IMG/VR virus record: IMGVR_UViG_3300031673_000147
Span: 1-42,308 of that record
DNA: 42,308 bases
From: a virus
Reading direction: 5' to 3' (one strand)
Shown: in pieces, positions 68 through 31,022 of the stretch
Layout: each line of letters starts with the position of its first letter
How positions within the stretch are numbered: position 1 is the stretch's first letter
The notes under the pieces: model-generated
What the model was told of the DNA's origin: nothing
Databases searched by the model: none
The model's input: only the letters and a program-made list of their open reading frames with translations
Made by a program: the position numbers and the translations under genes

Positions 68-715
68 TTGACCTCAGACGTAATTATTAACCACTGCTTA
101 AAAGCTATTGGCGAGGATGACCCTGTCGCCCCGGTTGAAATGACCCGGGTTGAGTGTCTTCAACTGATTAATTTATTCTATCAGAACGAGATCGGGGAGC
201 GCCTCAAAAACCTACTCTCCTATACTTATGACGCCAGCGACGGGGCGCACACAATTACTTTAGGTATCGGAACATTACCAAGCGATTTTTTGCTTCCGTC
301 CAGGGTGTACGACGGAGACGCTGAAACTGATGACCCACTGGAACAAATTTTTGATATCGAAAACAAGGTTACTGACACGGATACAACGTCACAATATATG
401 ATTCCAAACACAACACAGTTATGGATTTTTGGGACGACTCCAACCAACACCATTAAACTCTATTACTATGTCAAGCCGACTGCTTTAACAGACAGCGCAG
501 CATCTTCGCCAACTGCATTAAAAGAAAAGTTTCACCTTGACCCGTTTATGATCCACATAAAAGAAACAATGGCAATTAGGAACGACTACCTAAAAGACAT
601 GTTTGACCTGAAATCTCTAAAGTTAGACATTCTTGATGCCATTGAAAAAGCGCACAGTGTAGAAAAGCACGATGATAGTACCCTTATCATCAAAGATGTG
701 TATGGGGTGTTGTAA
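68..715 (+). CDS. Virion structural protein, possible head-to-tail adaptor
   Basis: 215-aa ORF with a TTG start 9 nt after GAGGGGG. It abuts the next gene (TAA-ATG) and lies between the head genes and the large tail gene. No recognisable motif. Confidence 0.6.
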   Translation: MTSDVIINHCLKAIGEDDPVAPVEMTRVECLQLINLFYQNEIGERLKNLLSYTYDASDGAHTITLGIGTLPSDFLLPSRVYDGDAETDDPLEQIFDIENKVTDTDTTSQYMIPNTTQLWIFGTTPTNTIKLYYYVKPTALTDSAASSPTALKEKFHLDPFMIHIKETMAIRNDYLKDMFDLKSLKLDILDAIEKAHSVEKHDDSTLIIKDVYGVL

Positions 716-3700
716 ATGGCCTATGACCGCATAAGAACAAGACATGGCAGTAACCGTGGCCGCAATAACCAACCCCTGCCAATCGAGCAAAAGGACTGGC
801 GAGGGGTTAACTATGTAGACGACATCTACACTATGCCGCCGCAACACCTGCCATTTGCTCAAAATGTTGACCTGGGAGCGCCTATCGGGGCAATATCCAA
901 GGTGGCAGGGTATGAATCCCTGTTTACCTCCCTTGGCGCCGGGAAGATTTTGGGCCTTCACGCCTGGGAGCACTCTGACGGCGACAAGCTGATCGCAGCC
1001 TGGGACAAGTACCTTTACCTGCTGTCCGGCGCCTCCGGCAGTATCGCCAAGACCTCACGGGCTGATTGGGATGCTGGAACCAAGACCAATCTTGATACCG
1101 CTACCAGCCCTGGTGATGTGAAAATGGCTAAAACCGGGACTGATTTTAGCGAAGCGGACACATTAACCGCCGATTTCAACGGAACCCACAGCAATACCGT
1201 GGCGGCAACCGACTCGGTTAAATTGACTATAGAAACGGTTCAAGAGTATGGGATTGTTTCTTTAGGTGCTACATCTTCACAGTATAATGGGGATAATGAC
1301 ACTGAGCAAGGTTGGAAATTTACGGTAGGGGCATCAAATATAATAGTTTCTAAATTACGGGTGTTTTGGGCTAAAGCCCAAAGTATCACCCTGCGTTTAT
1401 GGAGAGTGAGTGATTCTGCTTTACTAAGTTCAGTAACAGTCACGGCAGCAGATAGTTCTTGGGTAGTGGGCAGTATATCCCCTATCACTCTGACAGCAGG
1501 GGCTTCTTATGTTGTTTCTGCCGGTGCGCCAATGTCTCCTTATGCCACCTATCGTTATATTGCAAAAGCAAGTAATACTTATAATTCCAAGATAACCTGC
1601 AATGAAGGAAGATATTATCTAAACATAGGTTACTACCCTTCAGTCATTATTGATGCAAATATTTTTGGCATTACAGACATCGGAATTGACGTGACCGGCT
1701 ACAACGCGTCAGGGACGTATACGCATACCGTCCAGAACATCAGCGGAGTAGGGGTGGTTAAAACCTCTACAATCACCTTTAACAAGACAGTTCCGGCAGG
1801 AACAACACTCACTATAGAGGTGAGGATTTCAACAGACGGAGGTTCCACATGGGGATCGTGGACGGCTAAAAATACTGGTGATTCATTTATTACTGCCGGC
1901 ACTGATATAAGTAACTACCGTTTCCAGTGGCGTGCAAATTTATCCACCACAGATACCAGCGCCACACCGACGCTGGCCGATGTTACTATCAGTGTGACTA
2001 CTGCCTACTACACAGCAGGCGTTTGGCTTTCTCCCGTCTTGGATATGGGCAATACTCCGATGGTAGCAACTCTTTCCTGGACACAAACAATACCCGCAAA
2101 TACAACGGTGACATGGTATGCCAGGGGTTCGAGTAATGGGACGGTGTTTGGAGATTGGCAGGAGATAACTGTCAGCGGTGACGCCATACCGTTATTGAGA
2201 TATGCCCAGGTTAAATTTGAAATGACCGGAACAATTAGCGCGACGGCGACGGTATCAGACTTTCTCATAGGTTATTCCACCTCATACACGCAAGCTAACC
2301 GGCTAGATATATCACCGCTGGGCAGGACTAGCAACCTACTCACAGGGAACCGTGTGAGGATGCAGGACTATGACGATAGGTGTTATTGTGCGGATGGCTT
2401 GAGGCCGTTTGTTTTATATGTAAACGACAACACGGCGGTAACAGGCACGGCGCAGTCTGGAACGAGCAGTACAATACGGTTAGCAGCCGGGGCCAGTGCA
2501 GTAAACGACTTCTTTAACAATGCGTTTGTAACAATTACCGGGGGCACCGGAGTGGGGCAGACGCGGTTTATCTCCGACTACAATGGATCCACAAAGGATG
2601 CTACTGTATCGGTTAACTGGACAACGAACCCTGACGCCACATCCACCTACTCTATCAACTCTGCGGTGAAGGCACGGAAGGCAGGGGTTGACCCTCCAGG
2701 AACTGCTCCAACCCTAGCAGATTCAACGGTAGCAGGGACACCAAACGGGGTTTATTACGGCAAAATTACCTTCGTCAACGCGGAAGGCTACGAATCAAAT
2801 CCGTCAAGTGCCTCTGCTTCGGTAACCGTAGCCAGCAAAAAAATCACCTGGACAGTTCCGGTAGATGCTTCAGCCGGTAAGACTACGGCAAAGCGGAAAC
2901 TATACCGTACTAAGGCTGGTGGGAGTGTTTATTACTATATCGCCACCGTAGCCGACAACACGACCACGGCTTACACGGACAATATAGCGGACGCCTCGCT
3001 TACCGTTCTGATGGAGGACAACAACAATATCCCGCCAAGTGCCTCCATTGTGTACGCGTTTATGACATACATGTTTTATGCCAGTGGTAGCGATCTGTGG
3101 TTCTCGAAGGTCGGAACGCCGGAGCAGGTCCCTAATATCACCGGGGACATGCAGGTTAATATGTTGCCGAGTGTGATATTGGACATCAAAAGCAGTCCAA
3201 TGGCGCTTATTCCCCAGGGTGAAAACTTTATTGCTCCGATCACGACGAATACCGGCTTTATTTTTGACTCTGATCCTACCGTGGATACCACGATAATGAG
3301 GCTGATTGATAAAAACGGATCGCTGTCATTTGAAGCGTCTGATATTTGCATTGATCCGCAATTAAGGTCTATCCTGGTCTTTCCGACAAACACAGGGGTT
3401 AGGACACTTCTCCCCGGCTTACAGGAGGGCAGTATTGAGTCCACGCCGATGTCCCGGAATATCCAAAACTACTTTGACCGGACGGTCAACCGCACAAACA
3501 TGGCCGGGATATTCTTTAATAGCTACTATCTCATTTCGGTGGAGCATCACGACCCTGACGCGGCGGTAAACGAATACCTGACCTTTGCCTATGATTTTAG
3601 AACCAATGAGTGGTACGGACCTTGGACGTTCGGGTGCTCCTGCTACATTATTTCGGCTGGCGTTCTTTACGCTGGCGACCCGGCGGTGGGCAAGATTTAC

Positions 3701-25762: not shown

Positions 25763-26086
25763 TTGCAATCCCATCGCACCTTACACAAACACAACATCTC
25801 CGCAACTAAGCCATACACCGGAAAAGTAGGCCGCCCCGTGGGATCCGTAGCACCAAGGCTGCAAGGTGAAAAGGTGACGATACTAGACAAGGGCTATGAC
25901 TGGGACTGGTATCCTGCGGAGATGCAGCAGTTCCGCGAAATGTGGAAAGCCGGAATAAGCCTGCCGGACATAGCGGTACGCCTCAAGCGGCCACAAAAAG
26001 AGGTGGCGCTGCTGTGGCTGAACGAGTCATTTGAGAGACGAATCAGGGAACGCGAGGGGGGATTACTCGGATGCCAAAATGTTTAA
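25763..26086 (+). CDS. Hypothetical protein (possible HTH)
   Basis: 107-aa ORF with a TTG start. An internal GTG at 25874 is an alternative start. Confidence 0.5.
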   Translation: MQSHRTLHKHNISATKPYTGKVGRPVGSVAPRLQGEKVTILDKGYDWDWYPAEMQQFREMWKAGISLPDIAVRLKRPQKEVALLWLNESFERRIREREGGLLGCQNV

Positions 26087-26244
26087 TCTGCCGCAAGTAC
26101 CCCGCCCGCACCGGTGACCTGTTTTGCTGGAAGTGTGCCATAGGTGATTATCCTGCCGGCGGGCTACACAGGAGGTTGCATCCAACGCGCAGGGATGCCG
26201 CTGAGAAGCCACAGGATGCCCGTAGCGGCAAGATAACCGGCTAG
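26071..26244 (+). CDS. Zinc-ribbon protein (CLIC...CWKC)
   Basis: 57-aa ORF not in the track. ATG follows GGGGGG. Confidence 0.45.
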   Translation: MPKCLICRKYPARTGDLFCWKCAIGDYPAGGLHRRLHPTRRDAAEKPQDARSGKITG

Positions 26245-26286
26245 GTGGGGTAAAGTTTACCTAAGGGGAAAAAGGAGGGCTTAGAA

Positions 26287-26607
26287 TTGAAAATTAACGG
26301 CGGCATCATCGAGGGGCAGGAAGTTACGTTGGGGTGTCCGCATTATGAGGATTTTGATTGCTATCATGCTAGCGATGGCCCAAGGGGTGGTGATTGCCAC
26401 AAGATTAAATGCCCCAAGAGAGAAAAACTGTGTTGCGTCCACTGTGAAGATCATTTCGCTTGTTTTACTCACTTTAGGAGTGGTTGTATTGCTGCTGATG
26501 AATCAAAAATGATGGTATGGGGTAGTAAAGGTGAAGCAATGTGGGTAAACAAAAACCCAGACAACCACTGCCCGGTACATGGCCACGGCGGGAGGGGATG
26601 GAGATGA
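26287..26607 (+). CDS. Cys/His-rich protein
   Basis: TTG start 7 nt after AAGGAGGG. 106 aa with more than 10 Cys. Confidence 0.65.
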   Translation: MKINGGIIEGQEVTLGCPHYEDFDCYHASDGPRGGDCHKIKCPKREKLCCVHCEDHFACFTHFRSGCIAADESKMMVWGSKGEAMWVNKNPDNHCPVHGHGGRGWR

Positions 26608-26855
26608 AAGCAGGGCTATGCCATAAAGAGTTAAGCGAGTGGGAACCTGACAGACTTATCAAAGTAATAATTAAGCAGACATATATCGAGAGTGCGAAAG
26701 CCGAGCGGGAGCGGATCGCCAATCTGCTTGCGCCAAGAGGTTGCCAATGTTGCCCATATCCAAAGGCGCTTTGTAATACTACCGACAACTGTTTTGACTG
26801 CTGGATAAGGTATCTAAACGACACGCCGGGGGAGGATGCCAATGTCCTGGATTAG
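26604..26855 (+). CDS. Cys-rich protein
   Basis: ATGA overlap with the previous gene, GGAGGGG RBS. The ORF is open from 26541. Confidence 0.6.
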   Translation: MKAGLCHKELSEWEPDRLIKVIIKQTYIESAKAERERIANLLAPRGCQCCPYPKALCNTTDNCFDCWIRYLNDTPGEDANVLD

Positions 26856-27249
26856 ATTTACCGCCTACGGAATCCCGCAGCCCAAAGGATCCACAAAAGC
26901 CTTCGTGATCAAAGGACAGGCCGTAATAACCAGCGACAACACAAAGCTAAAACCCTGGCATGAGGTTGTCGCCTACGCAGCGCAGGAATATCGTCCAAGG
27001 GATGGATTGCTACAAGGGCCGGTAGTGGTGGAATTGCTTTTCTGCCTCTTGCGGCCAAAGTCGGTAAGCGTGAAAAAGCGGCCATTGCCAACGTCTAAAC
27101 CTGATCTTGATAAACTTACCCGGGGGGTATGCGATGCGTTAAAAGGGACGATATATGGGGATGACAGCCAGGTTGTGGGCATGAAGGTGGATAAAGTTTA
27201 CGGGGATCCTCCGAGGGTGGAAGTGAATGTGAGGAGGGTGGAAGCGTGA
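26842..27249 (+). CDS. rusA: RusA-family Holliday-junction resolvase
   Basis: GIPQPKGSTKAF... and KPDLDKLTRGVCDALKGTIYGDDSQVV match the RusA catalytic-Asp motif. The ORF is open from 26836. Confidence 0.9.
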   Translation: MSWIRFTAYGIPQPKGSTKAFVIKGQAVITSDNTKLKPWHEVVAYAAQEYRPRDGLLQGPVVVELLFCLLRPKSVSVKKRPLPTSKPDLDKLTRGVCDALKGTIYGDDSQVVGMKVDKVYGDPPRVEVNVRRVEA

Positions 27250-27443
27250 ATAAACTACTCAATTGTGTATTCTTGACGTTGGTAATATCAACCGGGATAG
27301 CTTACATGGTTATAACATATCTAACACCTAACCCGGTTACTATCCAACAACTCCAGGCTGAAGTCCAAAGCCTGCGCGCCGAGGTGGAAGATGTGAAACG
27401 GGTGCAGGGGTGGCAGAGTTATTACTTAGAGGGGAGGCGGTAG
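27246..27443 (+). CDS. Small TM plus coiled-coil protein
   Basis: 65-aa ORF. GTG overlaps the rusA stop. Confidence 0.6.
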   Translation: MNKLLNCVFLTLVISTGIAYMVITYLTPNPVTIQQLQAEVQSLRAEVEDVKRVQGWQSYYLEGRR

Positions 27444-27444
27444 T

Positions 27445-27531
27445 GTGACCATCATCTACACCGCCGGCGCAATCCTCATCAGTGTCGCCGCAGTATGTGG
27501 CTTCCGGACAGGTCGAGGGGGTGTGGGTTAA
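27445..27531 (+). CDS. TM micro-peptide (28 aa)
   Basis: GTG 7 nt after GGGGAGG. Not in the track. Confidence 0.35.
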   Translation: MTIIYTAGAILISVAAVCGFRTGRGGVG

Positions 27532-27575
27532 GGGACTTGACACAGCACTCGCCAAAAGTAGGGGGGGGTTGAACC

Positions 27576-27770
27576 TTGAGGGCTACAATCGAAATAGAAA
27601 TGCCTGAAAACTGCATGAAGTGTCCTTTTTGTGTCGGCAGTCAATTGGTTCCCGGGTATTATTGCGGCGCTTTAACAATAGCGCGAATGAGCGGTGGTAT
27701 AGAAATTTGCAAAGACAAAAGAAGAGACGACTGCCCTTTAAAGCCTGTTGTGGAGGGGGTATTACCTTGA
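27576..27770 (+). CDS. Cys-rich small protein (CMKCPFC)
   Basis: 64-aa ORF; TTG start after a GGGGGGGG tract. Confidence 0.6.
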   Translation: MRATIEIEMPENCMKCPFCVGSQLVPGYYCGALTIARMSGGIEICKDKRRDDCPLKPVVEGVLP

Positions 27771-28207
27771 TTAGCCTGGAGAAAGCAAAGGCGCTGAAAT
27801 CTGCGGGGCTAGTGTGGGAGCCGAAAAGATATGATTTATATCAAGTCCATCCAGAGGAACCTTGGTCTGAAGTGATTTGCATCATGCGGCAGGACCATGC
27901 TGACTCAGCCAAAAAATGGGTTGGCGATGGGCATATTGTCTGGCTTCCCCTCCTTGATCAACTGCTGGCGGAGATCGAGCGGCGCGGCTGGAACGCCGAC
28001 TCGGTATCGTTCAAAGACGGTGGATACGGCTGTGACATCTACTGGCTGTCGGCTACGGTACACACGAAGTATGCGACGTTTACAGGTGAGAGCAGGGAGG
28101 ACGCGGTTGCTTCTGCGCTTTTATATATACTTCCGCCGATAGACAAAATCCAGGGGGGGTGCGGGGATGGACGAAGACCAAAGGGTGGATCTACAACTAG
28201 CAAATGA
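27767..28207 (+). CDS. Hypothetical phage protein (paralogue of 13698-14087)
   Basis: TTG overlaps the previous stop (TTGA). The upstream part of track ORF 27620-28207 lies out of frame over the previous gene and is probably not translated. Confidence 0.65.
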   Translation: MISLEKAKALKSAGLVWEPKRYDLYQVHPEEPWSEVICIMRQDHADSAKKWVGDGHIVWLPLLDQLLAEIERRGWNADSVSFKDGGYGCDIYWLSATVHTKYATFTGESREDAVASALLYILPPIDKIQGGCGDGRRPKGGSTTSK

Positions 28208-28454
28208 AGCGGCGAAGAGGGGCGTTAACCGCGCCGCTGCTGCCAGTGTGGAGGCTATCCGAGATAGGAACGAGCAAGAAGACCCCTGGGAAGCGGATGG
28301 GTTTTGGTGTTGGTGGGCCAAGACAAGCCCGCCGGATCGGAAGGAGAAGGAGGCGCTGCCGCCGGGGGAGCCGTCCGGTAGGAGTTCCAAGAGTAAATGC
28401 AAAAAACGCAAGAAACCGCCGAAAAACTTCAGGAGTTTGTATATGGAGTGTTGA
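28167..28454 (+). CDS. Hypothetical charged protein (last gene of the early operon)
   Basis: 95-aa ORF after a G-rich RBS. The region is GC-rich and open in four frames, so the call is tentative. Confidence 0.45.
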   Translation: MDEDQRVDLQLANEAAKRGVNRAAAASVEAIRDRNEQEDPWEADGFWCWWAKTSPPDRKEKEALPPGEPSGRSSKSKCKKRKKPPKNFRSLYMEC

Positions 28455-28480
28455 CAGTCGAATAGTGGGCATGGTATGGT
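28451..28480 (+). promoter_or_regulatory. SigmaA-type promoter directly upstream of the CRISPR repeat
   Basis: TTGACA-18 nt-TATGGT, with TGg immediately 5' of the -10 hexamer (extended -10). It overlaps the stop codon at 28452-54. The expected start site is about 15-20 nt before the repeat. Confidence 0.6.
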
Positions 28481-28504
28481 AGTGGTGTATAGCACGCCCA
28501 TTTA

Positions 28505-28602
28505 GTCGCTCCCCGTGCGGGAGCGTGGATTGAAACGTTTGTACGTATATACCCCAACCGGTTGATTATAATGGGCCTGTGCAGACGCAGGCCCCGCGAA
28601 AC
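28505..28602 (+). CRISPR. Solitary type I-C-like CRISPR repeat, then a 34-36 nt spacer-like segment and a degenerate hairpin repeat (mini-array / solitary repeat unit)
   Basis: 28505-28536 reads GTCGCTCCCCGTGCGGGAGCGTGGATTGAAAC: 7-bp stem, 5-nt loop, 11-nt TGGATTGAAAC tail. 28573-28602 reads GGGCCTG-tgcagacg-CAGGCCC-CGCGAAAC. No cas genes in the window. Confidence 0.7.
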
Positions 28603-28976
28603 CACGCCGGTACGCTATACGCAGGCCGGGAAATTATAATAATCTTTACTCTCCTGCCATGTGTAGGCAGAGAAGCCGGTCTCTCGAACAGGGACCGGCT
28701 TTGGGCTCGGGTGGCCCGGGCGGCCAAGCGGTGGCGGAAAATGTAGACGCTAATGTGTGGTCTAGTGTCATCGCCACACTGCCCCTCCTTGATAGCTGAG
28801 GACAGGAAAGACATATGCCGGGTGAAAATCCCGGCCCGCTTGGAGGAAACAACGGTGTGATGAGCGCCTTTAATTTTGTACATCAGCCGGTAATATGCAG
28901 GTTGCCACGAGCCCGGCTTATAATAATCTCCGTGACCTGGGCGATCAGGCCGCGGAGGTCCCGCAAGGGAAAGAAA
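28603..28976. other. Hairpin-dense GC-rich non-coding tract
   Basis: No ORF with an RBS or protein-like sequence. Stems include AGCCGGTC/GACCGGCT, GTGGCG/CGCCAC and GCCGGG/CCCGGC. The exact 12-nt direct repeat TTATAATAATCT occurs at 28634 and 28918. Confidence 0.6.
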
Positions 28977-29006
28977 AACCGCCGTGTTGGGCGGTTAGGC
29001 TTTTTT
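28972..29006. terminator. Bidirectional rho-independent terminator
   Basis: AACCGCC-gtgttg-GGCGGTT, flanked by gaaaaa on the left and aggctttttt on the right. It overlaps the stop codon of minus-strand CDS 28995-29231. Confidence 0.8.
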
Positions 29007-29231
29007 CTTTGCTCCTCTTTTAGCGGAATGATATATAGTTTCTTCGTTATAAGTTCCCTGTCCGCCGCAAGTTATGCATTGCCATATTTCTGCTTTGTGT
29101 ATTGCTGGCCTTGGCGCAAGAAGCCTACGTCCACTGTATGGTCTATATTTTTCTACGTGTTGTTCCCGTATTCCAATATACTCCATATCACGGTATCCGT
29201 GGCAGTATCCGCATATTTTACGTTTATTCAT
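28995..29231 (-). CDS. Zinc-ribbon protein (CGYC...CITC)
   Basis: 78-aa ORF, last gene of the minus-strand operon. Confidence 0.7.
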   Translation of the reverse strand: MNKRKICGYCHGYRDMEYIGIREQHVEKYRPYSGRRLLAPRPAIHKAEIWQCITCGGQGTYNEETIYHSAKRGAKKKA

Positions 29232-29246
29232 CTACATCCATCCTTC

Positions 29247-29438
29247 CTATTTTTGTTCGGGGGTGTGGATTTCGCGTGCCTTGCGCCTCATGTATTCGCT
29301 AAAGGTGATGCCTTCGGCGCTGGCCCTTTGCATAATGGCTTCATATTCTTCCTGGCTAAGTCTAACCGTGCGCTGAATCCGCTTATCTGCGGAAGGTTTG
29401 CGCCCCGCATTGAGGCGCTTACCGCCTTTGGGTGTCAT
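29247..29438 (-). CDS. Ribbon-helix-helix protein (MobC/relaxosome-accessory-like)
   Basis: MTPKGGKRLNAGRKPSADKRIQRTVRLSQEEYEAIMQRASAEGITFSEYMRRKA fits the basic-arm plus RHH pattern. The ATG at 29438 was chosen (13 nt after the upstream stop); the track ORF extends to 29546. Confidence 0.6.
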   Translation of the reverse strand: MTPKGGKRLNAGRKPSADKRIQRTVRLSQEEYEAIMQRASAEGITFSEYMRRKAREIHTPEQK

Positions 29439-29451
29439 ATGGTCAGATCCT

Positions 29452-30231
29452 TTAATACATACATTCGCAGGGAGTATAATCAATTCCCTGGATGTCGAAA
29501 AGCGTTCCCTTAACAATGCGCTTCCTGAAAGATTCAAGCGTAACATATTTTATTTTACCACCTCTGCGATCCTTGAGGATTGCAATCTTGGGATTAATCT
29601 TTTGCCGGAACAGCTTTTCGTATTGTTCAACCTCTTTAAATCGTTCTGGCCAAACTTCATAAAGTCGGGCAAAGTGTCCAAGGCCACCTTTTATGCAACG
29701 TCCTCCACAGTTTGAATGGCTAAAACCAAGGCGGTACATGCGGGGAATTTGTATTTTCCATTTTGATTCACAAGTAGCCTTCATATATTCTTTACTTAAC
29801 GGATTATCAACCAGGGGAAAGCGACATTCTACCGGGGCGTATCTATAAGAGAGGTTAATGGCCCGATGTTCTTCTTCCTTGCCGATGCCAAAATAGAGAA
29901 TCGGTTCAATGCCCTGGGACTGTAAGTCATCGACATATTTTAAGGTTTGCTTCGTCTTTAACTCAAGCGAACATTTGGCAAGGTTCTTGCCGACAAGGTA
30001 TCGAGTTTTAAACCAAACTTCGGGAGGCGTGCGACCGTCGATTCTGTGCGCGATATTGACGTTGTGGTGAGAAATTACCTCATCAATAAAACGGTAATTG
30101 TCCTCATCCTCCCATGTGGTATCTGTGTGTAAGGCAACGACACTTTCCCGGCCATATTGCTTTACAACATGATGTAGGGTGAAGGAACTTGATAAACCAC
30201 CCGATAGCAAAACGACGTGTAGTGTTTTCAC
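29452..30231 (-). CDS. PP-loop ATP pyrophosphatase superfamily protein (PAPS-reductase / DndC-like)
   Basis: N-terminus HVVLLSGGLSSSFTL is an SGGxxS PP-loop. Cys motifs CSLELK and CGGRC are present, and the C-terminus ends CECMY. GTG start overlaps the upstream stop. Confidence 0.75.
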   Translation of the reverse strand: MKTLHVVLLSGGLSSSFTLHHVVKQYGRESVVALHTDTTWEDEDNYRFIDEVISHHNVNIAHRIDGRTPPEVWFKTRYLVGKNLAKCSLELKTKQTLKYVDDLQSQGIEPILYFGIGKEEEHRAINLSYRYAPVECRFPLVDNPLSKEYMKATCESKWKIQIPRMYRLGFSHSNCGGRCIKGGLGHFARLYEVWPERFKEVEQYEKLFRQKINPKIAILKDRRGGKIKYVTLESFRKRIVKGTLFDIQGIDYTPCECMY

Positions 30232-30422
30232 TACTGATTCCTTTTGGCACTAAGTACCATGTGGCCGTATTCGTTGGCGGGTTCCATTTTAAAACCCTCA
30301 ACTTTTTTGAGTTGACCAAGTACCCTTTTATTGAGCATGTTTTGGTGGATGAAGTATTTATTACCTTTTTCAAGTTCGCCTTTGATTTGGTTAATAGTTT
30401 GCTTGTTAATCATCTTCAACAC
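30231..30422 (-). CDS. Small hypothetical protein (first gene of the minus-strand operon)
   Basis: 63-aa ORF; ATG after AAGGAG. Confidence 0.65.
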   Translation of the reverse strand: MLKMINKQTINQIKGELEKGNKYFIHQNMLNKRVLGQLKKVEGFKMEPANEYGHMVLSAKRNQ

Positions 30423-30446
30423 TCCTTTGAATTTTGTCTTGCCTAA

Positions 30447-30475
30447 ATCATAGCACAGTCAAAAGTATAACGCAA
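30447..30475 (-). promoter_or_regulatory. SigmaA-type promoter of the PP-loop operon
   Basis: Minus strand reads TTGCGT-17 nt-TGcTATGAT (extended -10). Confidence 0.65.
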
Positions 30476-30647
30476 TACCATTTTGAAATGTTTTTAAATT
30501 CTTTTCGCAAGTAGCGCCGAGGAGGCGTTTTTGTTTTTATTCTTCAGCCACCAGGCGGCCACCTGGTCAAAGATAGCGTCGGTAAATGGGTGACACGCTC
30601 CACTCGTCCAACGGCGCTTTCGAGTGCTGATTTAGGGGCGTGGAAAA

Positions 30648-31022
30648 GTGAAGCGAGAAAACGTACTACCTATCAATGCCTTCTACATAACCTGGCTGAG
30701 GGACAAGGGAAAGAAAGACAGGCCAATCGCAAGGTGGGCTAATAAGAGATCCGGCGAGATTGCAGAGAAAACGGAAATGGATCAGATAGACTTTATTATG
30801 TACATGATGCTTTTGTCCCGGGCCGATGTAAAGACTCTGATTTGTTTTCCTTCAATTGAAACAATCTGCAAGGACTGCTTTGGAATCGAAAGGCGCACAG
30901 CCTGGCGACATTTGAGCGAACTTGAGCAGATGGGATTTATAAAAATCACGAAAGAGAGGGGTAAGCCGAATAGGTATTTCATGCTTGATTTCGCGGAATG
31001 GAAGAAGAATCCTCACTACTGA
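30648..31022 (+). CDS. Winged-helix (HTH_36-like) DNA-binding protein, paralogue of the 15000-15485 N-domain
   Basis: CFPSIETICKDCFGIERRTAWRHLSELEQMGFIKITKERGKPNRY parallels FPSYSTIGKKCSISRSTAIRTVNSLLEKGYLVKH...NIY. GTG start with a weak RBS. Confidence 0.7.
   Translation: MKRENVLPINAFYITWLRDKGKKDRPIARWANKRSGEIAEKTEMDQIDFIMYMMLLSRADVKTLICFPSIETICKDCFGIERRTAWRHLSELEQMGFIKITKERGKPNRYFMLDFAEWKKNPHY

Follow-up and report, generated by a model that had tools for sequence, protein, structure and literature searches.

Solitary repeat units and the locus in the phage genome

Solitary CRISPR repeat units (SRUs) act as RNA anti-CRISPRs (Racrs), and for type I-C systems RacrIC1 has been validated (Camara-Wilpert et al. 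2023, Nature 623:601, PMC10651486). All nine SRU candidates tested there, RacrIC1 among them, inhibited CRISPR-Cas. The same paper describes that a non-targeting CRISPR RNA (crRNA) also lowers interference, by competition. A neighbourhood of anti-CRISPR (acr) genes is frequent for Racrs, which is supportive but not defining. We analysed one such repeat in the phage record IMGVR_UViG_3300031673_000147; the whole stretch of 42,308 nucleotides (nt) is called the window, and coordinates refer to it unless another locus is named. Supplementary Data 1 of PMC10651486, the filtered output of SRUFinder, lists exactly this locus (IMGVR_UViG_3300031673_000147, Ga0307377_10000769, 28505-28536, GTCGCTCCCCGTGCGGGAGCGTGGATTGAAAC, I-C) with 100% identity, 100% coverage and a bit score of 63.9. 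It also lists the copies in two of the sibling loci treated below, L001 (Ga0307375_10000522) and L113 (Ga0307376_10004883). The locus is already known as an I-C SRU candidate, and the kind of element is published as well. What is new here is the comparison with sibling phages, by which the repeat is a precise insertion into an older cassette of promoter, leader and small RNA.

Type I-C repeats are about 32 nt long and are built as 2+7+5+7+11 nt, with a tail that ends in ATTGAAAC; the UGG after the stem is a Cas5c determinant (PMC8524198). The repeat at 28505-28536 on the plus strand shows this anatomy in its lengths, stem, tail and UGG. Folded in isolation, at -13 kcal/mol, it has a 2-nt 5' overhang, a 7-bp stem (28507-28513 with 28519-28525), a 5-nt loop (28514-28518) and an 11-nt tail (28526-28536). 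Its parts read GU-CGCUCCC-CGUGC-GGGAGCG-UGGAUUGAAAC, with the UGG directly 3' of the stem. The repeat hairpin was retained in the centroid folds with short and with long context. By analogy with the Cas5c biochemistry in PMC8524198, cleavage is predicted after 28525, with UGGAUUGAAAC as the putative 5' handle of a crRNA. At a permissive threshold, Rfam gave a weak CRISPR-DR9 match on the repeat (17.6 bits vs a gathering score of 45) and noise elsewhere, while at the gathering score nothing was found in the window.

Representative bacterial genomes contain 1609 exact copies of the 32-mer in 104 loci, of which 71 have at least three copies. The spacers in arrays built from this repeat are mostly 33-36 nt long, and the largest array comprises at least 92 copies within one 8-kb locus. 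Carriers belong to many phyla, including Bacillota (Paenibacillus, Cohnella, Saccharibacillus, Gorillibacterium, Anoxynatronum, Tindallia, Thermaerobacter). In a metagenome-assembled genome (MAG) of Tindallia sp. (L054), the array lies directly 3' of cas5c-cas8c-cas7c-cas4-cas1c-cas2 and runs from GTCGC to GAAAC in the same orientation as these genes, which were identified by NCBIfam with E values of 1e-19 to 1e-144. Because this array adjoins I-C cas genes in the same orientation, both the assignment to type I-C and the sense orientation of the phage repeat are verified. Genome matches with a single copy of the 32-mer did not share the flanks of the phage.

Within the 42.3 kb of the window, the 32-mer occurs once at up to 3 mismatches, and none of 100 shuffled sequences contained a match. 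The second-best ungapped match on either strand has 14/32 mismatches. Among the 30 open reading frames (ORFs) of the window that were scanned, none matched a Cas family. The original prediction had claimed a genuine type I-C repeat, solitary and in crRNA-sense orientation, in a phage without cas genes; this was borne out, for the cas genes within the 30 ORFs scanned.

SRUFinder accepts as an SRU a match to a known repeat that reaches at least 90% coverage and a bit score of at least 41.1, has no other repeat, whole or partial, within 100 bp (flank identity of at most 70%), and lies between genes in a virus or plasmid without cas association. In the window, the match covers 32/32 positions at a score of 63.9. 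The best local alignment of the repeat to either 100-nt flank has 15/32 identities (47%), which is the level of random windows, and the repeat lies between a gene ending at 28454 and an operon ending at 28995. Like the Racrs and SRUs of PMC10651486, it is a single repeat at full identity and coverage, intergenic and viral, directly behind a promoter and without cas genes or flanking repeats. A Racr role was one of the options in the original prediction, and it is supported as the reading under which the published catalogue lists this locus.

The differences from described systems are as follows. RacrIC1 sits 11 nt after a homologue of AcrIC5 in a bicistronic RNA, whereas the repeat in the window has no recognisable acr homologue nearby. 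RacrIF1 acts via a 5' part of about 70 nt, upstream of the Cas6f cut, that is bound by Cas6f and bears the Cas7f filament. In contrast, the RNA from the window would have a 5' part of about 17 nt and a long part 3' of the predicted cut. With the viral mini-CRISPR arrays that PMC10651486 cites, which are repeat-spacer-repeat units involved in conflict between viruses, the locus shares a repeat without cas genes, an upstream promoter and a spacer-length gap before the next hairpin, but it lacks a second repeat, and the "spacer" is ancestral self sequence without a target outside the phage family. The locus also resembles Cracr (Liu et al., bioRxiv 10.1101/2024.10.29.618823), for which I-C examples exist, in that a repeat-derived phage RNA would load host Cas proteins. 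Chromosomal I-C arrays such as that of L054 have the same 32-nt repeat in the same orientation relative to transcription, whereas the window has one copy and neither spacers, leader similarity nor cas genes.

Solitary or nearly solitary I-C repeats were also seen elsewhere. PMC10651486 lists a different one, GTCGCACCCTTCACGGGTGCGTGGATTGAAAC, on a further viral contig (Ga0307375_10000413, 48913-48944) from one of the samples that yielded the sibling loci, so that I-C repeat mimicry seems to recur in this environment. An unrelated viral contig (L002, IMGVR_UViG_3300037104_000061) carries the exact 32-mer in sense orientation at 3055-3086, in a gap of about 55-80 nt, according to the start codon chosen, between the apparent N- and C-terminal halves of terL. 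Either the contig has a second SRU, located in a late operon in which terL is split, or it was misassembled here. A Desantisbacteria MAG (L045) has one exact and one degenerate solitary copy 3 kb apart, at 475-506 (minus strand) and 3600-3631 (plus strand), each intergenic. In a Bacillota MAG (L096, 147-178), a degenerate copy comes about 35 nt behind an exact repeat, which is how a true mini-array with a decayed terminal repeat looks.

Promoter, leader and insertion site in sibling phages

We retrieved sibling loci from IMG/VR and JGI metagenomes by means of the 95-amino-acid (aa) protein encoded upstream of the repeat, together with an identical ENA contig (L119); the three source samples are IMG 3300031669, 3300031673 and 3300031578, beside ERZ27256810. 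The promoter is common to all siblings, as is a leader with the end ...GCCCATTTA, and they diverge after that point. In the window (and L119) and in L118, the leader is followed by the repeat and then by a sequence that we call segment A. In L001 the order is leader, repeat, a 79-nt element that we call X, and A, and L113 has the same order with a shortened A. The other four haplotypes have no repeat: in L109 and L114 the leader is followed by X and A, in L117 by X and a shortened A, and in the more diverged L108 by X and then unrelated sequence. Wherever it occurs, the repeat is 32/32 identical. Judged from this series, it is a precise 32-nt insertion at the centre of ATTTA|TAAAT, between an older promoter with its leader and an older small terminated RNA (X). 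The window haplotype has additionally lost X, exactly at the repeat boundary.

Upstream of the repeat, 17 of 148 aligned columns vary among the four carriers, which gives a probability of about 0.02 for 32 unchanged nt. The 22-nt leader beside the repeat is equally invariant, however, so that the invariance of the repeat is modest evidence for selection. The carrier L113 shares its promoter type with the repeat-less L114, and the repeat-less L117 shares that of the window and L001. Hence, presence of the repeat is independent of the promoter haplotype, which implies that the block moved by recombination within the population. Since the relatives differ by indels of 32 and 79 nt, the segment is not part of a conserved ORF; the original prediction had named membership in such an ORF as a finding that would speak against it. 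The siblings provide a natural before-and-after record, with the repeat absent, inserted exactly ahead of an older small RNA, or present alone, and their repeat-plus and repeat-minus alleles are matched natural controls. An SRU can accordingly be gained by a single exact repeat entering a ready-made, strongly promoted small-RNA cassette.

The predicted promoter is of the sigma-A/sigma-70 type and spans 28451-28480 on the plus strand. It consists of the -35 hexamer TTGACA (28451-28456), an 18-nt spacer and the extended -10 element TGgTATGGT (28472-28480, with TATGGT at 28475-28480), and scored 10/12 with an upstream TG in a consensus scan. The repeat starts 24 nt downstream, in sense orientation. 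Across the eight relatives the -35 hexamer is invariant and the -10 hexamer keeps TATxxT, while the sequence between them diverges at a length of 17-18 nt. Hexamers that are kept while the spacer sequence diverges at constant length are the signature of a working promoter. As the repeat-less relatives also have it, the promoter predates the repeat. The good sigma-A promoter that had been claimed just upstream of the repeat is therefore confirmed as a consensus match with hexamers conserved in eight relatives. Also as claimed, it overlaps the stop codon of the last early gene, of which the TGA (28452-28454) lies inside the -35 hexamer. This gene (28167-28454, plus strand, from the ORF list) closes the rightward early block and encodes the 95-aa protein, which is 85-99% identical in the relatives and had no match in Pfam, PHROG or PDB.

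The sequence from 28455 to 28994, between the 95-aa gene and a convergent minus-strand operon, is non-coding. With a start site placed from the position of the -10 element, the predicted 5' leader on the plus strand is about 16-19 nt long (28487-28504); it is invariant in the four repeat carriers and nearly so in the repeat-less relatives. In predicted folds, leader positions 28487-28496 pair with 28537-28545 just after the repeat, which closes a 5' domain around the repeat. In L114, the leader sequence GGTGTATAGCACGCCC (248-263) and the start of segment A, GGGCGTGCTATACACC (338-353), form a perfect inverted repeat. The resulting 12-bp stem encloses X, with a fold z of -5.9, and the window has a weaker version of it around the CRISPR repeat. 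According to these fold models, the stem could serve in RNA processing, or it could define the slot of the cassette as a site at the level of DNA.

A terminator scan of both strands identified a bidirectional intrinsic terminator at 28977-28996. On the plus strand it is the strongest one past the repeat, and from the other side it closes the convergent minus-strand operon. A weaker plus-strand candidate lies at 28854-28868, and between the repeat and 28854 the scan found no terminator-like site on the plus strand of the window. The predicted 404-nt RNA from 28487 to 28890 folds with z = -4.1. In L001 and L113, a terminator follows 79 nt past the repeat, inside X. From its sequence, the L001/L113 transcript would be a compact RNA of about 130 nt that ends at this terminator.

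Element X (CCCGTGGGGTTGCGTCAACAGCCCCAC; L109 3318-3396, L001 6901-6823 on the minus strand of the locus, L113 3364-3443), which the window lacks, combines the hairpin CGTGGGG...CCCCACG with the intrinsic terminator GCACCC-GCAA-GGGTGC-TTTT. It is conserved behind the common promoter in six sibling haplotypes, and words of the promoter (TTGACA...TGGACAT) recur in its start, TTGACATTGGACAT. X had no match in Rfam, and within the viral collection both X and segment A are confined to this phage family. X may serve as a short constitutive leader RNA in the manner of the 6S-type transcripts of late promoters, or as a small RNA of another kind, regulatory or decoy.

The original prediction took the sequence behind the repeat for the rest of a mini-array, with a spacer-like segment and a degenerate terminal repeat. 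A second hairpin, GGGCCTG-8-CAGGCCC-CGCGAAAC, is indeed present at 28573-28602, 36 nt past the repeat, and was predicted in all folds; the "spacer" would be 28537-28572. In a global alignment with the repeat, however, this hairpin has 10/32 identities, which is the level of chance. In place of the UGG that Cas5c needs there is CGC, and the tail of the hairpin measures 8 nt and not 11 nt. The best local score of the repeat against its 100-nt downstream flank is 15, a value equalled by 74% of random 100-nt windows of the phage. Both the hairpin and the "spacer" belong to segment A (28537-28646, plus strand, ending in TTATAATAATCT), an ancestral structured non-coding sequence with homologues in L109, L114, L001 and L118. 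It contains an internal direct repeat, TATAC..CCGG..ATTATAAT, at 28548-28572 and 28616-28640. Because segment A also occurs in L109 and L114, which have no CRISPR repeat, the hairpin and "spacer" are ancestral phage sequence and no remnant of an array.

Searches with the "spacer" agree with this result. The 36-mer and its surroundings had no match in the phage collection, and in the collection of viral contigs the region matched only the homologous place of the sibling phages. The hallmarks of viral mini-arrays are thus absent: there is no second repeat around a spacer, and the "spacer" matches no other element in these collections. We reject the mini-array because the identity is at chance level, the Cas5c determinants are missing and siblings without the repeat also have segment A, and the claimed spacer-like segment falls with it. 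When a hairpin with GAAAC lies 3' of an SRU, relatives should be inspected before it is called a degenerate terminal repeat.

Candidate roles of the repeat

On the sequence evidence, we consider the element an SRU that was probably acquired by a phage of an uncultured Bacillota-like host as a precise insertion behind an older, strong promoter of a constitutive type, where an older non-coding transcript has its 5' end, and we lean, a little beyond even chances, towards a Racr-type RNA anti-CRISPR as its most likely role. Host RNA polymerase would transcribe from the promoter at 28451-28480 and produce an abundant RNA, the first 50 nt or so of which would form a separate domain that presents the repeat hairpin. 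Host Cas5c would recognise the base of the hairpin and the following UGG, cut after 28525 and stay on the 11-nt handle. The handle would then head a long, strongly structured non-spacer RNA, from segment A onward, without a 3' repeat hairpin. Cas5c, plus Cas7c and Cas8c assembling on it, would in this way be drawn into useless or aberrant complexes, leaving fewer Cascades that target the phage.

The observations in support are the identity to I-C arrays, the solitary and sense placement, the conserved promoter, the insertion polymorphism, and a repeat that is unchanged across four haplotypes with two different downstream contexts. Several points weigh against a Racr. None of the 1951 spacers from all retrieved arrays with this repeat matches the window or its relatives, and nothing longer than 20 nt matched with 2 mismatches. 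Four of the eight close relatives lack the repeat, which is therefore dispensable and possibly recent, and its invariance could reflect youth instead of selection. Comparison of the neighbouring small proteins with Pfam, PHROG and PDB revealed no recognisable acr gene adjoining the repeat. As there is no terminator close to the repeat in the window haplotype, the RNA may run for several hundred nt. The proposed I-C mechanism is extrapolated from Cas5c biochemistry and would not copy the case of RacrIF1 with its upstream RNA of about 70 nt. If the repeat is a Racr, this would be another phage that disarms type I-C immunity via a 32-nt RNA mimic instead of a protein; since the principle is published and the locus is already in the candidate list, the finding itself adds little.

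The repeat might instead be a neutral passenger, that is, a recent accidental insertion or recombination scar in an insertion-tolerant leader without effect on immunity, which we regard as rather unlikely. The surroundings are a hotspot of indels and cassettes (X, the insert at 28647-28917, and genes between repeated units in L117 and L118), the repeat is found in only four of the eight haplotypes and is absent from the more diverged L108, and a young recombining block may explain the lack of substitutions, which extends to the adjacent 22-nt leader. An accident would hardly deliver one full repeat with exact boundaries, in sense orientation and close to a promoter, however, and the repeat persists in two downstream contexts and on different promoter haplotypes. 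The activity of nine out of nine SRU candidates tested in PMC10651486 also speaks against a passenger. An assembly chimera, in which reads of a host CRISPR array were joined to a phage contig, comes to mind because the contig is metagenomic and repeats are known break points for metagenome assemblers. We consider this explanation hardly credible: the repeat-less siblings show that both flanks are colinear phage sequence, there is a single repeat without a foreign spacer, and the same junctions occur in the independent ENA assembly L119, which is identical over the whole region, and in three further contigs from three JGI samples that have the repeat at the same site.

The RNA could also act as a guide, either as a crRNA-like weapon of handle and downstream sequence against sibling phages, or as a Cracr that represses promoters of cas or toxin genes via host Cascade. 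The cleavage product would bear an authentic 11-nt 5' handle, and there is a report of viral crRNA-like RNAs (crlRNAs) directed against I-C systems (bioRxiv 10.1101/2024.10.29.618823). In L118, the first 41 nt past the repeat match segment A of L001 without a difference, and in L001 this sequence comes after the TTT of the X terminator, so that an L118-type RNA could in principle pair with siblings that keep X. This TTT differs from TTC, which is usually given as the protospacer adjacent motif (PAM) of type I-C. Moreover, the sequence after the repeat is ancestral and differs by carrier (L001 and L113 have X there, the window and L118 have A), no second repeat sets the 3' end, and at guide position 7 segment A of the window differs from that of L001, L109 and L118. 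In 725 kb around 104 arrays, A and X had no PAM-flanked match of at least 9 nt, and the counts of matches were at chance level (about 5.5 for 9-mers). Two Cracr candidates, a 12-mer match without a PAM in L079 and an 8-nt spacer-start similarity in L095, were dismissed on inspection. On balance, we consider a guide function improbable. The original prediction had further suggested a homology patch, in which the 32 bp serve as a substrate for recombination with host I-C arrays (integration, CRISPR transduction or array disruption), and PMC10651486 mentions integration through sequences that resemble CRISPR repeats as another function that SRUs might have. The phage does encode Gam-like and exonuclease proteins. 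Nonetheless, 32 bp is very short for homologous recombination, and a role at the DNA level needs neither promoter-proximal placement nor sense orientation. When the window was compared with the 725 kb of the 104 host loci by blastn and tblastx, only the repeat itself matched and no phage-like DNA or protein was found, so that the suggestion found no support and is, in our view, very improbable.

A further reading concerns the site and not the repeat itself. The slot between promoter/leader and segment A might be a cassette site for small decoy RNAs (X, the repeat, or repeat plus X, in each case joined precisely at the borders of the elements), in which case X would be a second RNA element for counter-defence or regulation; we judge this improbable. 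In the fold models, the leader and the start of segment A may form a closing stem around the content of the slot. If this were true, repeat-exact gain and loss would point to a dedicated or Cas1-Cas2-linked capture of single repeats by phages.

Adjoining insert, neighbouring genes and host

In the window haplotype and its ENA twin, segment A is followed on the plus strand by a highly structured insert of about 270 nt (28647-28917), which is bounded by the duplicated 12-mer TTATAATAATCT at 28634-28645 and 28918-28929. The insert is absent from L001, L109, L113, L114 and L117, although its last 45 nt or so are similar to the unit found behind A in L109, L113 and L117. A 25-mer taken from it had no match in the viral collection, and it contains no convincing ORF. 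Possibly the insert is no more than the 3' portion of the transcript that starts ahead of the repeat. In L117 and L118, different inserts, small genes among them, stand between repeated '...GGCCGGAGGTCCCGCAAGGG' units, which marks the region as an insertion hotspot.

Genes recognised in the window encode the small and large terminase subunits (terS, terL), portal, major head protein, endolysin, a Gam-like protein, an exonuclease, a DNA methylase and RusA. Convergent with the repeat, on the minus strand at 28995-29438, are a ribbon-helix-helix regulator (NikA/Arc-like, 63 aa) and small Cys-rich genes. The Cys-rich slot varies among siblings: it holds a 78-aa paired-CxxC protein in the window, L001 and L114, proteins of 40 and 45 aa in L113 (3566-4003), and another gene in L108 (about 3460-3620). 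The 78-aa protein had no informative match in Pfam, PHROG or PDB. A variable slot of small genes with a conserved regulator within 1 kb of the SRU resembles an anti-defence (acr-aca-like) locus, for which no family match was found. Next to it, a gene resembling phosphoadenosine phosphosulfate (PAPS) reductase (29452-30231, minus strand; phrog_424, E = 1e-36) belongs to a convergent, moron-like module that separates the early from the late block, and might be part of DNA modification or another auxiliary function.

The window has a G+C content of 47.6%. In a search for cultured relatives, positions 26000-31000 had no nucleotide match in the phage collection. The closest terL among cultured phages is that of Clostridium phages, at about 50%, and for the endolysin the closest named homologues come from Desulfotomaculia (45-47%). 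The host probably belongs to the Bacillota. We also ranked array-bearing loci by tetranucleotide similarity to the phage, but do not trust this ranking, as it follows mostly G+C content and places Calditrichota and Desulfobacterota on top.

Two further observations concern the genomes of the relatives. L108 and L109 are parts of one viral contig of 80,564 bp (IMGVR_UViG_3300031669_000014), which contains the region twice; the copies are diverged, lie about 44 kb from each other, and encode upstream proteins with 85% and 91% aa identity to that of the window. This suggests that two related phage genomes of about 40 kb were joined in assembly. A distant relative (L110, IMGVR_UViG_3300035454_000232), of which the upstream protein is 37% identical, has TTGACA...TGcTACAAT at the same genome position (415-500). 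There, the promoter-like site is followed by a short hairpin-terminator and, about 250 nt further on, by an ORF that by eye resembles a small terminase subunit. The late genes may thus ancestrally have been preceded by a promoter with a short terminated leader.

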